This document shows positions 45,572 to 54,535 of a stretch of DNA of 60,645 nt, one piece after another (the first letter of the stretch is position 1; each line of letters opens with the position of its first letter). A model generated the notes under the pieces. The model did not search any database. It was not told the origin of the DNA and saw nothing but the letters and a program-made list of their open reading frames with translations. Source of the stretch: Clostridia bacterium (lineage in GTDB: Bacteria > Bacillota > Clostridia > UBA1381); the NCBI GenBank assembly GCA_900751685.1, contig CAADSR010000257.1, positions 1 to 60,645 of the forward strand, written 5' to 3'. A program made the position numbers and the translations under genes.

Positions 45572-45796
45572 ATGTCAGATATTAATAAACCAAGTATGCC
45601 ATCGTGTCCACCGTGTCCTTCCTGTCCGGTCTATCCCTGCGGCTGCGTTGGGTATGCGTATGTTCCGGTTCAGGAATTAGATAAAACATATGATCCTATG
45701 ACAGCATTGAGACAGGGGACCATTTTCCCTGAGTTGGACTTGCCGATGTGCGAATATGGGAAGGTTTGTAAAGCAGGAGGTAGTCTCAATGAATAG
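45572..45796 (+). CDS. cotJA: Spore coat-associated protein CotJA
   Basis: 74 aa, Cys/Pro-rich N-terminus, conserved AYVPVQ...GTIFPELDLP motif. Confidence 0.85.
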   Translation: MSDINKPSMPSCPPCPSCPVYPCGCVGYAYVPVQELDKTYDPMTALRQGTIFPELDLPMCEYGKVCKAGGSLNE

Positions 45797-46040
45797 AACA
45801 GAGATGCTCAATGCATTACAAAGCTATAATTTTGCAGCATATGATATGTTGCTTTATTTGGATACCCATCCAAAGGATAAAAAAGCATTTGAAATGTTCC
45901 GTGACCTTGTAGAAAAAACACGCCGTATGAAACAGGATTTTGAAAACCAATTCGGCCCGCTGACCCCTTATTCCGCAGCGCGTTTTGAAGAATTTAATTG
46001 GTTAGATTCACCATGGCCATGGGAAAAGGAGGGCAATTAA
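45789..46040 (+). CDS. cotJB: Spore coat protein CotJB
   Basis: MNRTEMLNALQSYNFAAYDMLLYLDTHP... typical CotJB. It overlaps the cotJA stop. SD GGAGG. Confidence 0.85.
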   Translation: MNRTEMLNALQSYNFAAYDMLLYLDTHPKDKKAFEMFRDLVEKTRRMKQDFENQFGPLTPYSAARFEEFNWLDSPWPWEKEGN

Positions 46041-46042
46041 GC

Positions 46043-46153
46043 ATGTTTAGTTATAATAAATTTCTAGAATTTCCAATCCGGATCAAAAATCCAAACCCCA
46101 GATTGGCGAATATAGTAATAACACAATATGGAGGGCCAAATGGCAATTGCTAA
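46043..46153 (+). pseudogene. cotJC: 5' fragment of cotJC (Mn-catalase-family spore coat protein), interrupted by the mobile element
   Basis: Good SD (AGGAGGG). MFSYNKFLEFPIRIKNPNPRLANIVITQYGGPNG matches the CotJC N-terminus up to the conserved QYGG.DG. Resemblance then ends and a stop follows 2 codons later. A full CotJC is about 190 aa. Confidence 0.8.
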
Positions 46154-46171: not shown

Positions 46172-47608
46172 TCATAAGCGGTATAGGATATCAAATTGCC
46201 GGCCGTCATCGCCTGTCTTGATGATGTCACCTATAAATTCCCTGGCGACCGTATTTTTTTGAACCGGCGAAAGGGAAGGGTCTTTTAAAGCCTCGATGGA
46301 CTGTGATATTTTTTCTTTTAGATTGTTTATTGTTGTTTCCCGGTCTTCTGTAGGCTGCATTTCCTGCTGTATCTGCTGGTTGACCTGGTCGATTTCTTTT
46401 TGAAGCTTTGCTTTGTTCTCCTTGTATTCTTCCAGAGTATCCACTCCATTTTCATATGCTTCTTTAACACGCCTCATACGGTTTTCAGCACGTTTGAGCT
46501 GGTCCTGGTATATTTTCATGTTCGGAGCGGAGGAAGGGTCTTTTTCGGGGATTTTTATGTCTATGCTCCCATTGATAAATCCCTCTAACTGGCTCAGTAT
46601 AAAAGCTTCTACCGTTTCAACTTTTATCCCGCCGTTGCCAGGGCAGGTGCCTTTGGAGCGGTTGTTGCAATATAAGTACCCGTTACAGTTTACGATGGGG
46701 CCGCCGCAGAGCCCGCAGTGGATCAGGCCGACAAGCCAATGGCTGATACTGTCTTTGGGTTTATACCATTTGCGGTAATGTTCCTTTTGTTCCTTCATGC
46801 GTTTTTGCACCTTCTCCCATGTATCCATATCAATGATCGCTTCATGCGACCCATCTTCAATGATGCTGTCCTCGTTATAATAATTCCGCCCGGTCTGCCC
46901 GGTAGGAGTCCAGCGGATCTTCCCGATATAAGCCGGATTGTTCAGCCAATACTCCACGGTCCGGTTCTCGATTTTATTTCCCCGGTGTGTCCGGACGCCC
47001 GCAGCATTCAAGTTTTTTGCGATCCGGAGCATACCGACGCCGGCGCTGTACCAGTCGAACACCTGCTTTATAATCCTGCTTTCTTCCTCTAAGGGCAGCA
47101 GCTGCTTCTCTTTCATCTGGTACCCAAAGGGAGCAATGGCCAAAGGCTCTCCCCGTTTGGCTTTTTCGGTCATGCCCCGTTTTACTTCTTCAGCCAGATT
47201 GATGCTGTAGTATTCATCCATGGCCTCGATCATGGCTTCAAACAGGATAGACATTTTGTCGTCCCCCAGGCTTTCACTGATGGAGATGACTTCAATGCCG
47301 AGCTGCTTCCGGAGCATGGACTTGTATACGATACTATCCTCCCGGTTCCGGGCAAACCGGCTGAACTTCCAAAGGAGGATCGCGTCAAAGGGCTTGGGCT
47401 TTAGTTTTGCGGTACCGATCATCCGGATAAAGCCGGCGCGCTTGTTTACCTTTTTCCCGCTGATCCCTTCATCCATAAAAATGTATTCTTCCGGGATAAT
47501 ATAGCCATTCCGTTTTGCATACTCCCGTATCGCTTTTATCTGGCTGTCAGGACTGTACTCGATCTGGTCATCCGTAGATACACGGATGTATGCAGCAGCT
47601 ATTTTCAT
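46172..47608 (-). CDS. Large serine recombinase (SpoIVCA/SprA/phiC31-type)
   Basis: N-terminal resolvase domain MKIAAAYIRVSTDDQ (catalytic Ser), recombinase domain, zinc ribbon (CGLCGG...C..........C), C-terminal coiled coil. Start at 47608 behind the SD AAGGAG. The stop lies about 20 bp from the cotJC junction. Confidence 0.9.
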   Translation of the reverse strand: MKIAAAYIRVSTDDQIEYSPDSQIKAIREYAKRNGYIIPEEYIFMDEGISGKKVNKRAGFIRMIGTAKLKPKPFDAILLWKFSRFARNREDSIVYKSMLRKQLGIEVISISESLGDDKMSILFEAMIEAMDEYYSINLAEEVKRGMTEKAKRGEPLAIAPFGYQMKEKQLLPLEEESRIIKQVFDWYSAGVGMLRIAKNLNAAGVRTHRGNKIENRTVEYWLNNPAYIGKIRWTPTGQTGRNYYNEDSIIEDGSHEAIIDMDTWEKVQKRMKEQKEHYRKWYKPKDSISHWLVGLIHCGLCGGPIVNCNGYLYCNNRSKGTCPGNGGIKVETVEAFILSQLEGFINGSIDIKIPEKDPSSAPNMKIYQDQLKRAENRMRRVKEAYENGVDTLEEYKENKAKLQKEIDQVNQQIQQEMQPTEDRETTINNLKEKISQSIEALKDPSLSPVQKNTVAREFIGDIIKTGDDGRQFDILYRL

Positions 47609-47753: not shown

Positions 47754-48629
47754 TTACTTTAGTATTTTTTGTTTCTCTTTTAAGAATTCTTCAGCAGTAA
47801 TAATATTATCATCCAATAAGTCCTTTAAAGAACGTAATGCATTTGATTTATCTAGCGTATTTATAGAAATATTTTTATTTTTTTCCTGTTCCATTTCTTC
47901 TATAAAACCAGCAGAAATAATACCAGTTGGTACAGCAACAAGCCCAATTCCCAGTAGTGCAATAATGGAACTAAACAGGCGGCCCCATCCTGTAATTGGA
48001 TAAATATCACCATAGCCAACGGTGGTAAAGGTAGCAATGGACCACCACAGTCCGGAAAAAGCATTCTTAAACACATCAGGCTGTACGGGGTTTTCCACAT
48101 TATACATTAATAAAGAAGAAATCACCATTAATATAAATACAACAATTAAAGAAGAAACCAATTGATTGGACTTTTGTTTTAGAACACCTCCTATGGTAGA
48201 GAGGGCAGAAGTATAACGGTTCACTTTTAATAAGTGGAAGACCCGTAGCAAACGCAGCATCCGGAGGACTTTTAAATCTATTGGCAGAACGAACGGAAGG
48301 TAAAATGGCAAAATAGAAATCAAGTCAACAAAAGCCATAAAGGAAAATATGTACCGGATCCGGGCACGTGTTGGAGATTTATCTGGATATAGATAATCAG
48401 CAGTCCAAACACGTAAGAAGTATTCAATTGTAAAAATAATAACAGATATCGTTTCAATAATAGAAAAAACAGATTTTGTATTTTCACTGATATTAAACGT
48501 AGTTGCAATCAAAAGACAGACATTAAATAAAATTAAGCAAAGTATAAACAAATCGAATATTTTACTTGAAATATCGTTATCTTCTGCAGCTTGAATAATT
48601 TCAAAAATCCGTCGTTTCAGTTTTTGCAT
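47754..48629 (-). CDS. 6-TM voltage-gated-type K+ channel with a C-terminal SHOCT-like domain
   Basis: Selectivity filter TTVGYGD. S4-like helix LRMLRLLRVFHLLK with a basic residue at every third position. C-terminus LRSLKDLLDDNIITAEEFLKEKQKILK resembles SHOCT. Start at 48629 behind the SD GGGGAG. Confidence 0.85.
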   Translation of the reverse strand: MQKLKRRIFEIIQAAEDNDISSKIFDLFILCLILFNVCLLIATTFNISENTKSVFSIIETISVIIFTIEYFLRVWTADYLYPDKSPTRARIRYIFSFMAFVDLISILPFYLPFVLPIDLKVLRMLRLLRVFHLLKVNRYTSALSTIGGVLKQKSNQLVSSLIVVFILMVISSLLMYNVENPVQPDVFKNAFSGLWWSIATFTTVGYGDIYPITGWGRLFSSIIALLGIGLVAVPTGIISAGFIEEMEQEKNKNISINTLDKSNALRSLKDLLDDNIITAEEFLKEKQKILK

Positions 48630-48645
48630 AAGAAACTCCCCTTTA

Positions 48646-49269
48646 TTATTTAACATATTTATTAATTTTATATGTTTTCTTATTATGTATCGGACAATAG
48701 TAGCTGTTGAACATGTGTCCGCTATTGCAGTCAGGCATTAAGCATTTGTGGTCTATACAGTAATTGCAGTGATCATTTGTACAGCGTTCATGGCAGCCAG
48801 TTTCTCTGCATTCGTGTATAAAGCAATAATAACTATTGATTTGTGCGGTATACTGACAATCAGGGATACTACAAAGACGTGTATTTCTAGGAGAAATATT
48901 ATTTTTAATTTGTGGATTAGTGTTTTGTTCTTGTTCTGGCAAACTGTCTTTGTTTGTTGATGGCTCTCCTTCTTCCAAACAGCGTCGTATAAATGCACGG
49001 CCATCCACACTGTTATCATCATTATCTTTATGAATTGTTCTATCCTCCCCACAAGATTTACATTTTGTATCCCGTGGAGCATTGACTTCCTCACAATTAG
49101 GACAAACCCAGCGTACTCCATTTGTAGAGTTAGTCGTAACGGTATTAGGCGATGCGTTGTATCTCATAGGGAAGATGTTTGAATTTAATGCATAATTTGC
49201 AATAATGATAACAGTACATAATAAGAATATTCCCGTAGCTATTCCGGCAATGAATTTTTTCATAAACAT
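48646..49269 (-). CDS. Membrane-anchored Cys-rich protein with zinc-ribbon and duplicated Cys/His motif
   Basis: N-terminal TM anchor. WVCPNCEEVNAPRDTKCKSCG is a RanBP2-like zinc ribbon. The C-terminal motif C-x2-PDC-x7/8-NSYYC-x-IH occurs twice. I recognise no family. Confidence 0.6.
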   Translation of the reverse strand: MFMKKFIAGIATGIFLLCTVIIIANYALNSNIFPMRYNASPNTVTTNSTNGVRWVCPNCEEVNAPRDTKCKSCGEDRTIHKDNDDNSVDGRAFIRRCLEEGEPSTNKDSLPEQEQNTNPQIKNNISPRNTRLCSIPDCQYTAQINSYYCFIHECRETGCHERCTNDHCNYCIDHKCLMPDCNSGHMFNSYYCPIHNKKTYKINKYVK

Positions 49270-49310
49270 AACCCCTTATCTGTAGGCTTTTTATTTATGG
49301 AGATTTGTAT

Positions 49311-50795
49311 TTACATAGATAAAGATTGCCGGTATTCTGTGGCTAACATTGTTTTGTTGAATTCTGCAGTTTTATCTATCTCCTGGACAAGAGTTTCTAA
49401 ATCATCAATATTGACATTAAAAAATTCTTTTCTTAAATTAACTTTGTTTGTTCTTTTATCATTGAGGCGATTATGTAACTCATTTTCCAGGTCTACAGCA
49501 TTTTCAGAAAAGATAAAGCTATGAACATCAAATGTAAAGGGAACAGATGCACTTCCTAGTTCCTTTATACGATCCATTGGATCCAGTCTTCTGGTCATGC
49601 CAATTTTAAAGATAGAATCACCAAAAGATCCTAGATTACTGATAACATAAACATAACCAGCTTTTCCATTTTGTAATTTAGTAATTTCTTCTTTTTTCTC
49701 TTCCACCAAAGATAGTTGTTGTTGAAGTTCCGCTATTTTACTTTGTAGGTCAAGAAGAAGAGTATCGTCAGTGCAACTTTTAATTTGCTGTTGAATTTCA
49801 TCAATTCGATTGATGTATTTTTTTTCTTCTGCTTCAACTTGCTTTTTTTGTTGTTCTAAAGCTTTACGTTCTTCTGCTTCTTGCCGCATTTGATCCCGTA
49901 ATGCTTGTTGTTCTGCACGTTCTTTTTCCTTCTTTATGTAATACTCATATTCTATCTGAATAGCTTTTTCAAATAGGAGTTCTATTTCAGAAATAAAGTT
50001 ATTCAAAGTTGGTGCAATAGACTGATTCCCATCAGAAGCAATTTGAATATATTTTCCAATCATATTTTTAAAGCTTTCCATACATTTATCAAAAGTCGTA
50101 AATTTTAATCCTGTGAGAATATTTTGTAATTCTGCACGTAAGGCAATTACCATCAATTGATAAATGGCACGGTTTGATTTTGTTGTATATCGTTTTTCAT
50201 ATCGTTTCAGTACATCTTCAATAATTTTATTATTTTCTCTATTCAGAGTTCTCAGTTCTTTGATATCCATGGAATGAAGTGGAAGCTCTAGAGAGGGGGT
50301 AAGTTGTTCTAGATCAGTTTCTTCCTCTGAAGTTAATTGTAAGATATTTGAAGGTGTTGTACTAATAAGAGAATAGTCATTTACAATAGTTTGAATTTTT
50401 TTATAAAGAGCTTTACAAATTTTTAATTTATTTTTACCTAGCTCAATTTTTAGTTGTTGGCTCTTATATTCTTTTTGAGCATCCTCAAATTGAAGTTTTG
50501 TCGCCTCACATTTTAGTCGGAATTCCTCTGTTTTATTTTTATAAGAATCTATGAGCTTATCTATTTCTAGTTGAGTTTTTTCTAATTCCGAGTCGCGTTC
50601 TGCAACAATAGAAGACTTCTTTTCATTAATCTGATCAATTTGAATTTTGGTGATTTCGAGTTCTTTCTTTAAATTTTCTAATGCCTGTTTGGTAGAGAGT
50701 ATATATTCTTCTACGTGTTTTAATTCATCTTGTTTTTTTTCAATATCCTTCTCGATATTAAACAAGATTTTTAAACGTTCCCAAAAATTAAACAT
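49311..50795 (-). CDS. DUF4041-like coiled-coil protein with C-terminal T5orf172/MUG113 (GIY-YIG superfamily) domain
   Basis: About 380 aa of Lys/Glu-rich coiled coil, then GYVYVISNLGSFGDSIFKIGMTRRLDPMDRIKELGSASVPFTFDVH...LENELHNRL, which is T5orf172-like. Start at 50795 behind the SD AGGAGG. Confidence 0.7.
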   Translation of the reverse strand: MFNFWERLKILFNIEKDIEKKQDELKHVEEYILSTKQALENLKKELEITKIQIDQINEKKSSIVAERDSELEKTQLEIDKLIDSYKNKTEEFRLKCEATKLQFEDAQKEYKSQQLKIELGKNKLKICKALYKKIQTIVNDYSLISTTPSNILQLTSEEETDLEQLTPSLELPLHSMDIKELRTLNRENNKIIEDVLKRYEKRYTTKSNRAIYQLMVIALRAELQNILTGLKFTTFDKCMESFKNMIGKYIQIASDGNQSIAPTLNNFISEIELLFEKAIQIEYEYYIKKEKERAEQQALRDQMRQEAEERKALEQQKKQVEAEEKKYINRIDEIQQQIKSCTDDTLLLDLQSKIAELQQQLSLVEEKKEEITKLQNGKAGYVYVISNLGSFGDSIFKIGMTRRLDPMDRIKELGSASVPFTFDVHSFIFSENAVDLENELHNRLNDKRTNKVNLRKEFFNVNIDDLETLVQEIDKTAEFNKTMLATEYRQSLSM

Positions 50796-50812
50796 GCCAT
50801 TCCTCCTAAATA

Positions 50813-50840
50813 TTGACAAAATTTTCTGTTGTGTTATAAT
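50813..50840 (+). promoter_or_regulatory. Near-consensus extended -10 promoter pointing rightward, against the flanking genes
   Basis: TTGACA (50813-50818), 16-nt spacer, TGTTATAAT (50832-50840). Confidence 0.6.
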
Positions 50841-50846
50841 ATTTAT

Positions 50847-50922
50847 AGGAGATAATTGGATGGATTTGATAATTGCTCCTAAGTCTACAGATACTTGCAC
50901 TATCTGTAGACTTTTTTATTTT
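50847..50922 (+). ncRNA. Candidate ~75-nt antisense sRNA between the lipoprotein and DUF4041 genes
   Basis: Predicted start about 6-7 nt after the -10 element. It ends in a 12-bp perfect hairpin AGTCTACAGATA/TATCTGTAGACT (50882-50912) plus TTTTTTATTTT on the + strand only. It contains the direct repeat GATAATTG twice. Confidence 0.5.
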
Positions 50923-51838
50923 AATAAAAGTCGGTTAGACTCATTTCAGCGGGTGAAGTGGTATCATCACCTTCAACAATTCCATAGAAGTTATAAGTGT
51001 CCCCAATATCAAACTTGTGGGGAATGGTAGAATATCTTGAATGAATCTCATACTCATTTTTATCATCATCTACTACAATAAAACTTTGACCTCCATAGGA
51101 GGGGGAGCTTGATAAAGTCATGGTTTTTACCCTACCATGTACGATGTTTTTCATTCCATTATTCATAATCCCATTCTTTGCTGTATCGTAATCCAGCTTA
51201 GAATATTCAGAACGTTCCTGTTCAGACATTTTGACGTTATCTTTGCAGATGACATAACAATAATAGTGAGGTTTGTTAAAAATATTATCATAATCACCTA
51301 CAGTGTATACATAAAAATCACCACTATCAAAAACATCACTGATGGAAACGGTGGAAAATGAATTAGAAAGCTTCTGGCTATTATTCTTAGCCGTTTCAAT
51401 ATCCATTGTTTCATCCGTTACCATAAAGGTAGCAGCAAAAACCTCTTTTAATAGAGAAACATTATCAGTATTAAATTCTATTGTCCAGTGCTTCTGATGA
51501 GGTCGGTCTGTATCTGCGAAAAAGCGGATGATATAGTCATTAATATTCAGTTTTATGGATTTATAATTATCAACTATAGAAACCATAGAATCAATAGTTG
51601 CAGACGAGTTTAGCTCTTTCAATGCAGAGACATATTTTTGATATGCCACAGCCATATATTCTGGAATAAGAGAGGTATTGTTAATAATATCTTTCATAAA
51701 ATACTTTGTTTGATTACCGGATCTTTCTGTATACAAAGTAGGGGTTAATGTGGGCGAAGGTGTTACATTAACAGAGCGATTGTTGCTGCATGAAGTAATT
51801 AACACACACACGATTAATAGTATAAATATTTTTTTCAT
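50921..51838 (-). CDS. Lipoprotein of unknown function
   Basis: MKKIFILLIVCVLITSCSNN lipobox. Start at 51838 behind the SD AAGGTGG, 20 nt after the ImmA-like stop. Confidence 0.65.
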   Translation of the reverse strand: MKKIFILLIVCVLITSCSNNRSVNVTPSPTLTPTLYTERSGNQTKYFMKDIINNTSLIPEYMAVAYQKYVSALKELNSSATIDSMVSIVDNYKSIKLNINDYIIRFFADTDRPHQKHWTIEFNTDNVSLLKEVFAATFMVTDETMDIETAKNNSQKLSNSFSTVSISDVFDSGDFYVYTVGDYDNIFNKPHYYCYVICKDNVKMSEQERSEYSKLDYDTAKNGIMNNGMKNIVHGRVKTMTLSSSPSYGGQSFIVVDDDKNEYEIHSRYSTIPHKFDIGDTYNFYGIVEGDDTTSPAEMSLTDFY

Positions 51839-51858: not shown

Positions 51859-52296
51859 TTATAAACATTGAATTCGTTTTTCGATAATTCTTTTATCTAT
51901 ACCGGTGATGCTGACAATTTGTTGCTTAGAAAATTGATTGTTAATATAATTTTTTAAATCAAAATCATCCAATAGCATATAACTGGCAAGTAAATTTGCT
52001 TCATTTTCATATTCGTTCGTTGCAATGTATGTATGCCTGTCTAAAAATATGCGATTCATTTTTGCGTGTAGAAAAGCATGGGAAAGCTCATGAGCCAGGG
52101 TTTGCAACCTGTCATGTGTATTTAATTTTTCATTCAAGTAAATAATTTTTATCCGTTTATAGTGCTGAAAGAATCCATGTGTTCCATTGGGGAGCGGTGT
52201 ATCTATAATAATAATATCCATTGCTTCAGCAAGCTCGTATGGATTTAAAGTTTTAAATCTATATTTTATTATTTTAGCTTTTTTGGCAATATCCAT
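51859..52296 (-). CDS. ImmA/IrrE-family metallopeptidase
   Basis: HEXXH motif in LAHELSHAFLH. 145 aa, immediately downstream of the XRE repressor gene. Confidence 0.8.
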   Translation of the reverse strand: MDIAKKAKIIKYRFKTLNPYELAEAMDIIIIDTPLPNGTHGFFQHYKRIKIIYLNEKLNTHDRLQTLAHELSHAFLHAKMNRIFLDRHTYIATNEYENEANLLASYMLLDDFDLKNYINNQFSKQQIVSITGIDKRIIEKRIQCL

Positions 52297-52310: not shown

Positions 52311-52718
52311 TTATTTTTTATATTTATTAGGTGTATATTTCTCCTTCGCTTTTTCTTTTGCCATAGCCAGTCCAATGCGCATAGCAGATTTTATTTGCTC
52401 TAATTCGTCCTTAGTAGCTGGGACACCATCAAACATTAACCCTTCCTGCTTTTCTAAGTCTGAAAACGTGTTTTCTAAAATAGTTTCAATTTCTCTTTCT
52501 TCTTTATTAATAGAATCTGCTGTAGTTTTGTCTGTACGCTCTAAAAGATAGTCAATAGAAACATCAAAAAAATCAGCTATTTTTTTGAGCATTTCATAAT
52601 CAGGTTGACGTTTGCCTGTTTCATATAAAGAAACAGAACTTTCTGCCACTCCTATTAACTCACCAAATTCTTTCATAGATAAGTCACGTTGGTGTCGCAA
52701 TTCTCTTAATCGAAACAT
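52311..52718 (-). CDS. XRE-family HTH repressor (CI/ImmR-like)
   Basis: LRELRHQRDLSMKEFGELIGVAESSVSLYETGKRQPDYEMLKKIADFFDVSIDYLL is a classic XRE HTH, followed by a C-terminal extension. Confidence 0.85.
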   Translation of the reverse strand: MFRLRELRHQRDLSMKEFGELIGVAESSVSLYETGKRQPDYEMLKKIADFFDVSIDYLLERTDKTTADSINKEEREIETILENTFSDLEKQEGLMFDGVPATKDELEQIKSAMRIGLAMAKEKAKEKYTPNKYKK

Positions 52719-52740: not shown

Positions 52741-52876
52741 TTGTACTCTTTGCAATACGCAAAGTAAATACAACTTTGCGAAATGTAAAGAAAAATAAAA
52801 AATATACTTGACAAATTGCAAAGGTAGTGTTATTATTTAAATATACTTGACGAAATGCAAAGGTGGTGAAAAGATG
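52741..52876. promoter_or_regulatory. Divergent-promoter genetic switch with four 17-bp operator-like sites
   Basis: Sites CTTTGC-N5-GCAAAG (52749-52765), CTTTGC-N5-GTAAAG (52775-52791), CTTGAC-N5-GCAAAG (52808-52824) and CTTGAC-N5-GCAAAG (52847-52863). Rightward promoter TTGACA-17-TATTAT (52809-52837). Leftward promoter TTTACT-17-TACAAT (52769-52741). Confidence 0.6.
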
Positions 52877-53083
52877 AGACAATGGTTAAAAGAGTTGCGC
52901 CTCACAAAAAAAACAACTCAACAGGAATTGGCTAATGAACTTGACGTATCGTTAAGCTATTACAATCAAATTGAAAATGGTGAGCGTCAGAAAAATTTAG
53001 ATTTATCATTGGCAGCAAAATTATCAGAATTATTTGAGATTCCTATTGAATGGATTATCCAGCAGGAAAGTAAATTAGCATAG
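52874..53083 (+). CDS. XRE-family HTH protein (Cro-like)
   Basis: MRQWLKELRLTKKTTQQELANELDVSLSYYNQIENGER. Divergent from the repressor gene. Start at 52874. Confidence 0.8.
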   Translation: MRQWLKELRLTKKTTQQELANELDVSLSYYNQIENGERQKNLDLSLAAKLSELFEIPIEWIIQQESKLA

Positions 53084-54210: not shown

Positions 54211-54234
54211 AGCAGGCTTTATCTGCCTGCTTTT
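54211..54234 (+). terminator. Rho-independent terminator
   Basis: AGCAGGC/GCCTGCT stem followed by TTTTG. Confidence 0.6.
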
Positions 54235-54286
54235 GAGAATAAATTGGACAAGCATGACAAGTATAAATTTTAAGGAGGAAATAAAA

Positions 54287-54535
54287 ATGAAAGCAACAGG
54301 AATCGTGAGAAAAGTAGATGAACTTGGAAGAATCGTGTTACCTATGGAGCTGCGGAGAAGCTTCAATATTGAGGAAAAGGACGCTTTGGAAGTATATACG
54401 GAAGGTGAGAAGATCATCTTGAAAAAGTATGAGCCTGCATGTATCTTCTGCGGGGATTTAAACGATGTGTTCACCTTTGGCGGGAAAAACATTTGCCCAG
54501 AGTGTGCAAAGCGCATAGGGGGAATTACAAAATGA
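54287..54535 (+). CDS. AbrB/SpoVT-family DNA-binding protein with C-terminal zinc-ribbon-like Cys pairs
   Basis: MKATGIVRKVDELGRIVLPMELRRSFNIEEKDALEVY is a swapped-hairpin AbrB domain. The C-terminus has CIFCG...CPEC. SD AAGGAGG. Confidence 0.85.
   Translation: MKATGIVRKVDELGRIVLPMELRRSFNIEEKDALEVYTEGEKIILKKYEPACIFCGDLNDVFTFGGKNICPECAKRIGGITK

Follow-up and report, generated by a model that had tools for sequence, protein, structure and literature searches.

A four-gene block between the repressor and integrase genes of a Clostridia prophage, probably a mosaic of independent cargo that includes a SNIPE homologue

The window analysed here comprises the 60,645 nucleotides (nt) at positions 1 to 60,645 of contig CAADSR010000257.1 of a Clostridia bacterium (assembly GCA_900751685.1, lineage UBA1381), which carries a prophage in which four minus-strand open reading frames (ORFs) lie between the genes for an ImmA/XRE pair and the gene for a large serine recombinase. 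Most probably, the block is a mosaic of cargo genes (morons), each of the four acquired independently, within the lysogeny module of a tailed temperate phage integrated into the spore-coat gene cotJC by a large serine recombinase; the genes would be expressed in the lysogen and their products would act at the cell envelope, each on its own. We give this reading a probability of approximately 0.8. As judged by homology, at least one gene of the block is anti-phage, namely that for a coiled-coil protein with a T5orf172 domain, which is a homologue of the known single-gene anti-phage nuclease SNIPE (PD-λ-1). In the order in which they follow ImmA, the four genes are:

50921..51838, minus strand: lipoprotein of 305 amino acids (aa) with the lipobox ITSC, directly after ImmA
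49311..50795, minus strand: SNIPE / PD-λ-1 homologue of 494 aa, with AGGAGG 6 nt 5' of the ATG
48646..49263, minus strand (or 48646..49269): orphan Cys-rich protein of 205 aa, with AAGGGG upstream
47754..48629, minus strand: Kv-type potassium (K+) channel of 291 aa with six transmembrane (TM) segments and a C-terminal SHOCT tail, with AAGGGGAG upstream; adjoins the recombinase gene

The evidence for independent acquisition comes from a co-occurrence test in which all four proteins were compared by tblastn with 23 IMG/VR loci that hold PD-λ-1 homologues, with 80 genome loci that hold homologues of the channel, and with the loci of the lipoprotein relatives. No channel, lipoprotein, or Cys-rich gene was found at the 23 PD-λ-1 loci, and none of the other three genes at the 80 channel loci; no locus carries two of the four genes, except copies of this same prophage, and no other prophage examined (more than ten lysogeny modules) has more than one of them. 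At the nucleotide level, similarity between elements covers single coding regions only and ends at gene borders. Because SNIPE, the channel, and the lipoprotein are each found elsewhere in the same slot without the others, and because DNA similarity stops at the gene borders, the genes appear to be independent cargo, and the interval between repressor and integrase would be a hotspot that has received single genes one after another. The first-pass annotation had proposed an undescribed four-gene system of a sensor plus a membrane effector. That proposal dissolves on comparison, since the genes do not recur as a cassette beyond copies of this prophage and the nuclease gene matches the described SNIPE, a result that spares cloning effort aimed at a four-gene cassette. 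It is the fallback offered alongside it, i.e., that the genes are independent morons, that the evidence favours, with single genes occupying the same slot of other prophages. The block offers a clear example of a prophage defence/moron hotspot in an uncultured gut Clostridia phage.

The assignment of the second gene of the block to the SNIPE family is based on a nearly full-length match. PD-λ-1 was discovered in E. coli as a defence that needs only one gene (Vassallo et al. 2022, PMC9519451) and is identical with SNIPE, a nuclease bound to the membrane that cleaves phage DNA as it is injected (Saxton et al. 2026, PMC13190303). The window protein consists of an N-terminal coiled coil, a central PD-λ-1 region, and a C-terminal T5orf172/GIY-YIG nuclease domain with the motifs GYVYVISN, KIGMTRR, and KEFF; it matches the PADLOC model PD-Lambda-1 (PDLC03976, E 2.2e-82, profile positions 29-472 of 491), phrog_1847 (E 7e-93), and, at residues 415-508 of the 529-aa ORF, Pfam T5orf172 (2.9e-16) and MUG113 (1.3e-19). 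The domain calls made previously from the sequence largely stood (the lipoprotein, the T5orf172 domain, the TM-anchored Cys-rich protein, and the Kv channel with SHOCT), the exception being DUF4041. Scanned alone, the central 211 aa of the SNIPE homologue gave no match to the Pfam DUF4041 model even with the cutoff at E<=1, and an assignment of that type rests on the full-length PADLOC PD-Lambda-1 model. Within the block, PADLOC recognizes this protein as the known PD-Lambda-1, and neither the channel nor the lipoprotein has a PADLOC match.

No TM segment was found in the window homologue (the maximal 19-residue Kyte-Doolittle value is -0.15 in the first 80 residues). Among its relatives, the closest, from locus L006 (61% identical), likewise lacks a TM segment, and those from L007 and L008 (52-53%) possess one. 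The gene order in L006 is XRE-ImmA-SNIPE-serine recombinase, with SNIPE as the sole gene between ImmA and the recombinase; this solitary position and the lack of a conserved neighbour over the 23 loci fit a gene that works on its own. In comparison with E. coli SNIPE, the window protein shares the C-terminal nuclease domain and carriage on a mobile element, and it matches the family hidden Markov model (HMM) along its length, with a central region that aligns to the PD-λ-1 profile, whereas it has a coiled coil of approx. 190 aa in place of the N-terminal TM segment and leaves Pfam DUF4041 silent; moreover, the interaction with ManYZ described for λ cannot apply to it, because the host is a Gram-positive anaerobe. 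A survey of SNIPE homologues counted one TM segment in 59%, two in 7%, and none in 34%, with the TM-less homologues presumed to be targeted by their own N-terminal domains (PMC13190303). The same study reported that membrane tethering stops self-cleavage and that E. coli SNIPE deprived of its TM segment is toxic. A TM-less homologue from a Gram-positive host thus bears on the question of how such variants get to the membrane. An N-terminal amphipathic helix was considered as the anchor and is unsupported, as the hydrophobic moment of the 14-mer is 0.32 in the window protein (rank 224 of 481) and 0.14 in that of L006.

The last gene of the block encodes a protein with the sequence traits of a Kv-type channel. 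It matches Pfam Ion_trans (1.5e-36, profile positions 2-240 of 241), Ion_trans_2 (2.4e-16), and SHOCT (1.5e-6), as well as phrog_7872 (E 3.7e-59), a PHROG of unknown function that corresponds to this channel family. TM segments are apparent in the hydropathy profile, the selectivity filter TTVGYGD is invariant in the family alignment, and the S4 segment (LRVLRMLRLLRVFHLLKVNRY) has Arg at every third position; the best relatives in PDB are Kv7, Kv4, and Shaker (E 4e-30), together with Kv2. The protein is therefore predicted to conduct K+ in response to membrane voltage. It resembles prokaryotic channels of the KvAP/KvLm type in its six TM segments, S4 Arg spacing, and TTVGYGD filter, and it is 60-65% identical to widespread chromosomal channels from Oscillospiraceae and their relatives; unlike these, it is phage-encoded beside an integrase and ends in a SHOCT tail, in place of which many chromosomal relatives have a CPYCG motif. 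In the alignment, family members end either in a SHOCT domain or in a CPYCGxK[LI] half-zinc-ribbon, and both endings occur on chromosomes and phages. The SHOCT tail was rejected as a marker of phage-borne channels: it is also present at Lachnospiraceae loci without integrase or repressor, and some phage-borne channels do not have it.

The channel has been found in ten other phage or prophage contexts, none of which contains any of the other three block genes:

L003/L004: channel 86% identical to that of the window, between repressor and integrase
L124: channel 66% identical, between repressor and integrase
L034: channel 63% identical, between repressor and integrase
L029: channel 61% identical, between repressor and integrase
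L032/L033: channel 57% identical, between repressor and integrase
L127: channel 57% identical, between repressor and integrase
L054: channel 55-62% identical, directly after a cro/repressor pair, on a contig that ends before any integrase
PLE2 (NC_031036 22377-23156): weaker ion-channel match at the same lysogeny-module position
JNU_P5 (MN830253 41428-42183): weaker ion-channel match at the same lysogeny-module position
Dulem virus 33 (PP511792 26754-27461): weaker ion-channel match at the same lysogeny-module position

The last three are 26-34% identical over 40-85% of the query. In these unrelated Firmicute temperate phages, the channel often directly follows the repressor or directly precedes the integrase, and the recombinases beside it are mutually only 21-36% identical, compared with 57-86% for the channels. 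Lysogeny modules have thus acquired voltage-gated K+ channels repeatedly, among them the modules of two cultured Lactobacillus phages, PLE2 and JNU_P5. This reproducible pattern is the part of the analysis worth following up, and it is directly testable in Lactobacillus. An IMG/VR scan with the channel as the single query found nothing, and text searches of the literature on prophage K+ channels returned no study. No partner gene is conserved beside the channel homologues in other phages; a Zn-ribbon partner upstream of the channel was considered, given a 75-aa CxxC protein in L003 and a zinc-ribbon gene in a Halorubrum virus, and was rejected, as L032, L029, PLE2, JNU_P5, and Dulem virus 33 have none. 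A further reason is that in L003 (9268-9824), just upstream of the 86% identical channel, the CxxC protein, which has weak MqsA/YokU-like matches, is paired with a toxin-like DUF4258 protein; the two look like a toxin-antitoxin pair, a different type of cargo at this position.

The lipoprotein is a member of a small unnamed family whose genes, in other prophages, come right behind the repressor gene or right ahead of the integrase gene. It has no match in Pfam, PHROG, NCBIfam, or PADLOC and none at E<=10 among PDB sequences, and an indexed homologue search returned only the lipoprotein itself; an exhaustive HMMER search of 1.8e9 representatives yielded 46 distant relatives of approx. 300 aa, nearly all with a lipobox. 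Three of their contexts are readable, i.e., XRE followed by the lipoprotein (L116), the lipoprotein followed by a serine recombinase (L118), and XRE, the lipoprotein, and, further on, a Tyr integrase (L119), and none of the three contains any of the other block genes. The AlphaFold2 model, which reaches a predicted local distance difference test (pLDDT) score of 87.7 with a 30-sequence alignment and 43 from the single sequence, comprises an alpha/beta N-terminal domain and a C-terminal oligonucleotide/oligosaccharide-binding (OB) fold. Fold searches returned weak, generic OB-fold matches (CcmE and IF1 in PDB at E ~1e-3), and the matches in BFVD include phage lipoproteins from the gut virome.

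The Cys-rich protein is an orphan. An N-terminal TM anchor (residues 1-28) is followed by one CPxC...CxxCG zinc ribbon and a C-terminal region rich in Cys and His, in which a motif of approximately C-x4-C...YC-x-IH occurs three times; by the positive-inside rule, the Cys-rich part is predicted to lie outside the cell. Pfam gave only sub-threshold Zn-ribbon matches (E ~3e-4) and PDB only marginal matches to RanBP-type zinc ribbons, and no homologue was found among 5.8e9 proteins. The 205-aa protein is itself missing from that collection, because public gene callers chose another frame and annotate a 109-aa ORF instead (48753-49121, minus strand). A stop-free stretch of at least 205 codons arose in none of 5000 shuffles of this DNA, whereas the 109-aa alternative was matched in 112 of 5000, and the codon score mildly favours the 205-aa frame. 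The length of the long ORF speaks for a real gene, as do its ribosome-binding site and the TM segment and zinc ribbon that it encodes; the short alternative could be a product of chance.

With respect to the setting, the following genes flank the block:

46172..47608, minus strand: large serine recombinase (integrase) at the left end of the prophage (Pfam Resolvase, Recombinase, and Zn_ribbon_recom; phrog_95 integrase, 1.8e-105)
51859..52296, minus strand: ImmA/IrrE-type metalloprotease, the partner of the repressor (Pfam Peptidase_M78, 3.3e-15; phrog_87 metallo-protease, 1.2e-23)
52311..52718, minus strand: XRE-family immunity repressor (Pfam HTH_3, 3.7e-16; phrog_8 transcriptional regulator, 8.6e-24)
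52847-53083, plus strand: cro-like helix-turn-helix (HTH) gene, divergent from the XRE repressor

The ORF listing, with starts picked by ribosome-binding site, bears out the layout described previously, in which four leftward genes downstream of XRE and ImmA are separated by gaps of 16-41 nt and one of 125 nt: the gaps are 20 nt between ImmA and the lipoprotein gene, 125 nt between the latter and the T5orf172 gene, and then 41 and 16 nt. The GpA terminase, portal, S78 prohead protease, and capsid genes lie further along the same contig, so the element is a genuine tailed temperate phage or prophage of a Clostridia host, and the interval had been correctly placed between the integrase and the repressor of a temperate element. 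The earlier description of the four genes as an AT-rich block holds for base composition and not for its limits: the low-GC stretch (30-36%) also includes ImmA, XRE, and the cro-like gene, which have 30-34% GC, the recombinase having 48% and the replication genes 41%. As these three genes are equally AT-rich, low GC is a trait of the whole lysogeny module. The XRE repressor is the first gene of the leftward (lysogenic) string. Since the four genes lie downstream of XRE and ImmA in the same direction, they are most likely expressed in the lysogen from the repressor operon.

It is reasonable to assume that all four products are located or act at the envelope, the lipoprotein through its lipobox, the Cys-rich protein through its TM anchor, and the channel through its six TM segments, and the block would therefore most likely guard the lysogen at the stage of phage entry, with each gene acting singly. 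By homology to its E. coli counterpart, the SNIPE homologue would cut incoming siphovirus DNA at the membrane during injection. The lipoprotein, presumably exposed on the outside of the membrane, may prevent injection in the manner of Ltp-type lipoproteins, a suggestion drawn from its position and family context. Ltp of phage TP-J34 is a lysogeny-module lipoprotein that is expressed from the prophage and blocks DNA injection (PMC3952083). Like the Ltp-type exclusion lipoproteins of temperate phages of Streptococcus and Lactococcus, the window protein is encoded between repressor and integrase on the lysogenic strand, and its relatives occupy the same slot; in contrast, Ltp has approx. 140 aa with HTH-like repeats and the window protein 305 aa with a C-terminal OB fold, and the two share no similarity of sequence or fold. 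The preferred guess for the channel is either a response to the depolarisation that goes with the entry of phage DNA or a clamping of the membrane potential. Ion channels expressed from prophages are also found in λ RexAB and in Hailong, two defence systems that use such a channel as their effector. In λ, rexAB lies in the immunity operon with cI, and its place beside cI is a positional analogy to the window channel. The latter differs from both systems in being a six-TM Kv-type channel with its own voltage sensor and without a PADLOC match, and the domain scans of its neighbours revealed no RexA-like or HalB-like (nucleotidyltransferase) partner; Hailong, for its part, uses an IRK-type channel that carries pentapeptide repeats (PMC13586616).

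Several points weigh against a mosaic of independent, envelope-acting morons. Co-transcription and expression in the lysogen are deduced from gene order and short gaps, and an anti-phage role of prophage channels is something that we infer. For the lipoprotein and the Cys-rich protein, the absence of co-occurrence carries little weight, because both are so rare, with 46 distant relatives and none, respectively. In addition, a SNIPE homologue without a TM segment needs another route to the membrane, given the toxicity of TM-less E. coli SNIPE, and a neighbouring membrane protein could in principle serve. The last point leads to the suggestion of a "split" SNIPE peculiar to this element, in which the homologue would be tethered or kept inactive by a neighbour (the Cys-rich protein, the SHOCT tail of the channel, or the lipoprotein). 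It agrees with the lack of a hydrophobic segment in this homologue when the L007 and L008 relatives have one, with the prevention of self-cleavage by tethering (PMC13190303), and with the presence, 41 nt downstream, of a gene for a single-pass membrane protein. However, the L006 homologue is also TM-less and has no such neighbour, the 34% of homologues without a TM segment are thought to rely on their own N-terminal domains (PMC13190303), and the Cys-rich domain is predicted to lie outside the cell, away from a cytoplasmic nuclease; nor is any linkage demonstrable, because the Cys-rich protein has no homologues. We regard a split SNIPE as quite improbable. A still lower probability attaches to the idea that the four genes form one undescribed abortive-infection system, with the coiled-coil nuclease or the zinc-finger protein as the sensor and the K+ channel as the membrane effector. 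The common strand, the short gaps free of minus-strand promoter-like sites, the envelope action expected of all the products, and the fact that PADLOC names no system with this combination are all compatible with it, but the comparative data contradict it and it is largely refuted: the genes do not co-occur in the 23 SNIPE loci, the 80 channel loci, or the more than ten prophage lysogeny modules, the nuclease family works alone (PMC9519451, PMC13190303) and stands alone in L006, DNA similarity ends at gene borders, and a plus-strand promoter and terminator intervene between the first and second genes.

The XRE and ImmA genes could, alternatively, be a damage-responsive pair resembling CapH/CapP that switches on downstream defence genes, rather than a phage immunity pair, and PADLOC does report capH (5.9e-13) and capP (1.1e-11) here. 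These models, however, match any XRE/M78 pair, and in L006, PLE2, and other phages a pair of this kind likewise lies ahead of the integrase. Because the gene divergent from the window pair is a cro-like HTH gene and the phage early and replication genes come after it, the arrangement is that of a classical immunity switch, and the CapH/CapP interpretation appears improbable. More weight is due to the possibility of lysogenic conversion, in which the channel (and perhaps also the lipoprotein) would work for the host's own physiology (K+ homeostasis, membrane potential, or osmotic and pH adaptation in the gut) and would be unrelated to phage defence. The channel belongs to a very large family (6930 homologue matches) and is 60-65% identical to ordinary chromosomal members, one of which (P0115, 63% identity) lies among housekeeping genes; 78 of the 80 species-representative genome loci have no integrase or divergent cro/repressor pair nearby, the other two having prophage-like neighbours, and PADLOC has no model that matches the channel. 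On the other side, its repeated capture into the exclusion/defence interval of prophages, and its place beside SNIPE here, suggest a role in phage-phage conflict, although this evidence is circumstantial. A host function thus has a fair, though less than even, chance of being correct, and our guess leans towards defence. A bolder version of the latter would hold that Kv-type channels between repressor and integrase are an unrecognised, widespread single-gene prophage cargo in Firmicutes that acts in phage-phage conflict, e.g., by means of a voltage sensor that detects the depolarisation caused by an incoming phage and opens a K+ pore, which blocks the entry of DNA or aborts the infection, and that in the window the channel is stacked with a TM-less SNIPE and two envelope proteins as a layered entry barrier; we consider this generalisation speculative and, as a whole, rather unlikely.

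Apart from the four genes, the largest gap of the block contains a candidate RNA gene:

50813..50922, plus strand: candidate antisense small-RNA unit, in the 125-nt gap between the lipoprotein and SNIPE genes

An extended -10 sigma-70 promoter on the plus strand (TTGACA-16-TGtTATAAT, 50813-50840, 12 of 12 positions) is followed after 40 nt by an intrinsic terminator with a 13-bp stem (50881-50913) and a T-run on the same strand. The predicted transcript of approx. 75 nt (~50847-50922) folds into two hairpins (-24.5 kcal/mol, z = -5.9), and none of 200 shuffles was as stable. The unit is convergent with the lipoprotein gene, and its RNA would be antisense to any transcript that reads through into the SNIPE gene. 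An Rfam search of 45.5-55.5 kb gave only chance-level matches and none for the candidate RNA, which occurs only in copies of this prophage.

At its left end, the prophage interrupts a spore-coat gene. The recombinase gene adjoins a 5' fragment of cotJC (45998-46153, plus strand), with cotJA and cotJB upstream (45572-46153 for all three), and cotJC is broken after approx. 36 codons. A second prophage, that of L029 (11420-13448), is also flanked by a cotJC fragment, which in this case comes from a different part of the gene and encodes the C-terminal 130 aa, and its serine recombinase is only 22% identical to that of the window. As a prophage with an unrelated recombinase likewise adjoins a piece of cotJC, this gene looks like a recurrent target for sporulation-gene-intervening prophages; a literature search for cotJC-intervening elements found nothing directly relevant. 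Sporulation-gene-intervening prophages include skin in sigK, SPβ in spsM, and the yin element in yabG. The window prophage resembles these in that a large serine recombinase is associated with the splitting of a mother-cell sporulation gene, and differs from them in its target, cotJC. It should be added that the early region of the phage encodes an AbrB/SpoVT/MazE-fold protein (54233-54535, plus strand; PF04014 in public gene calls), which is of note for a phage that sits in a sporulation gene.

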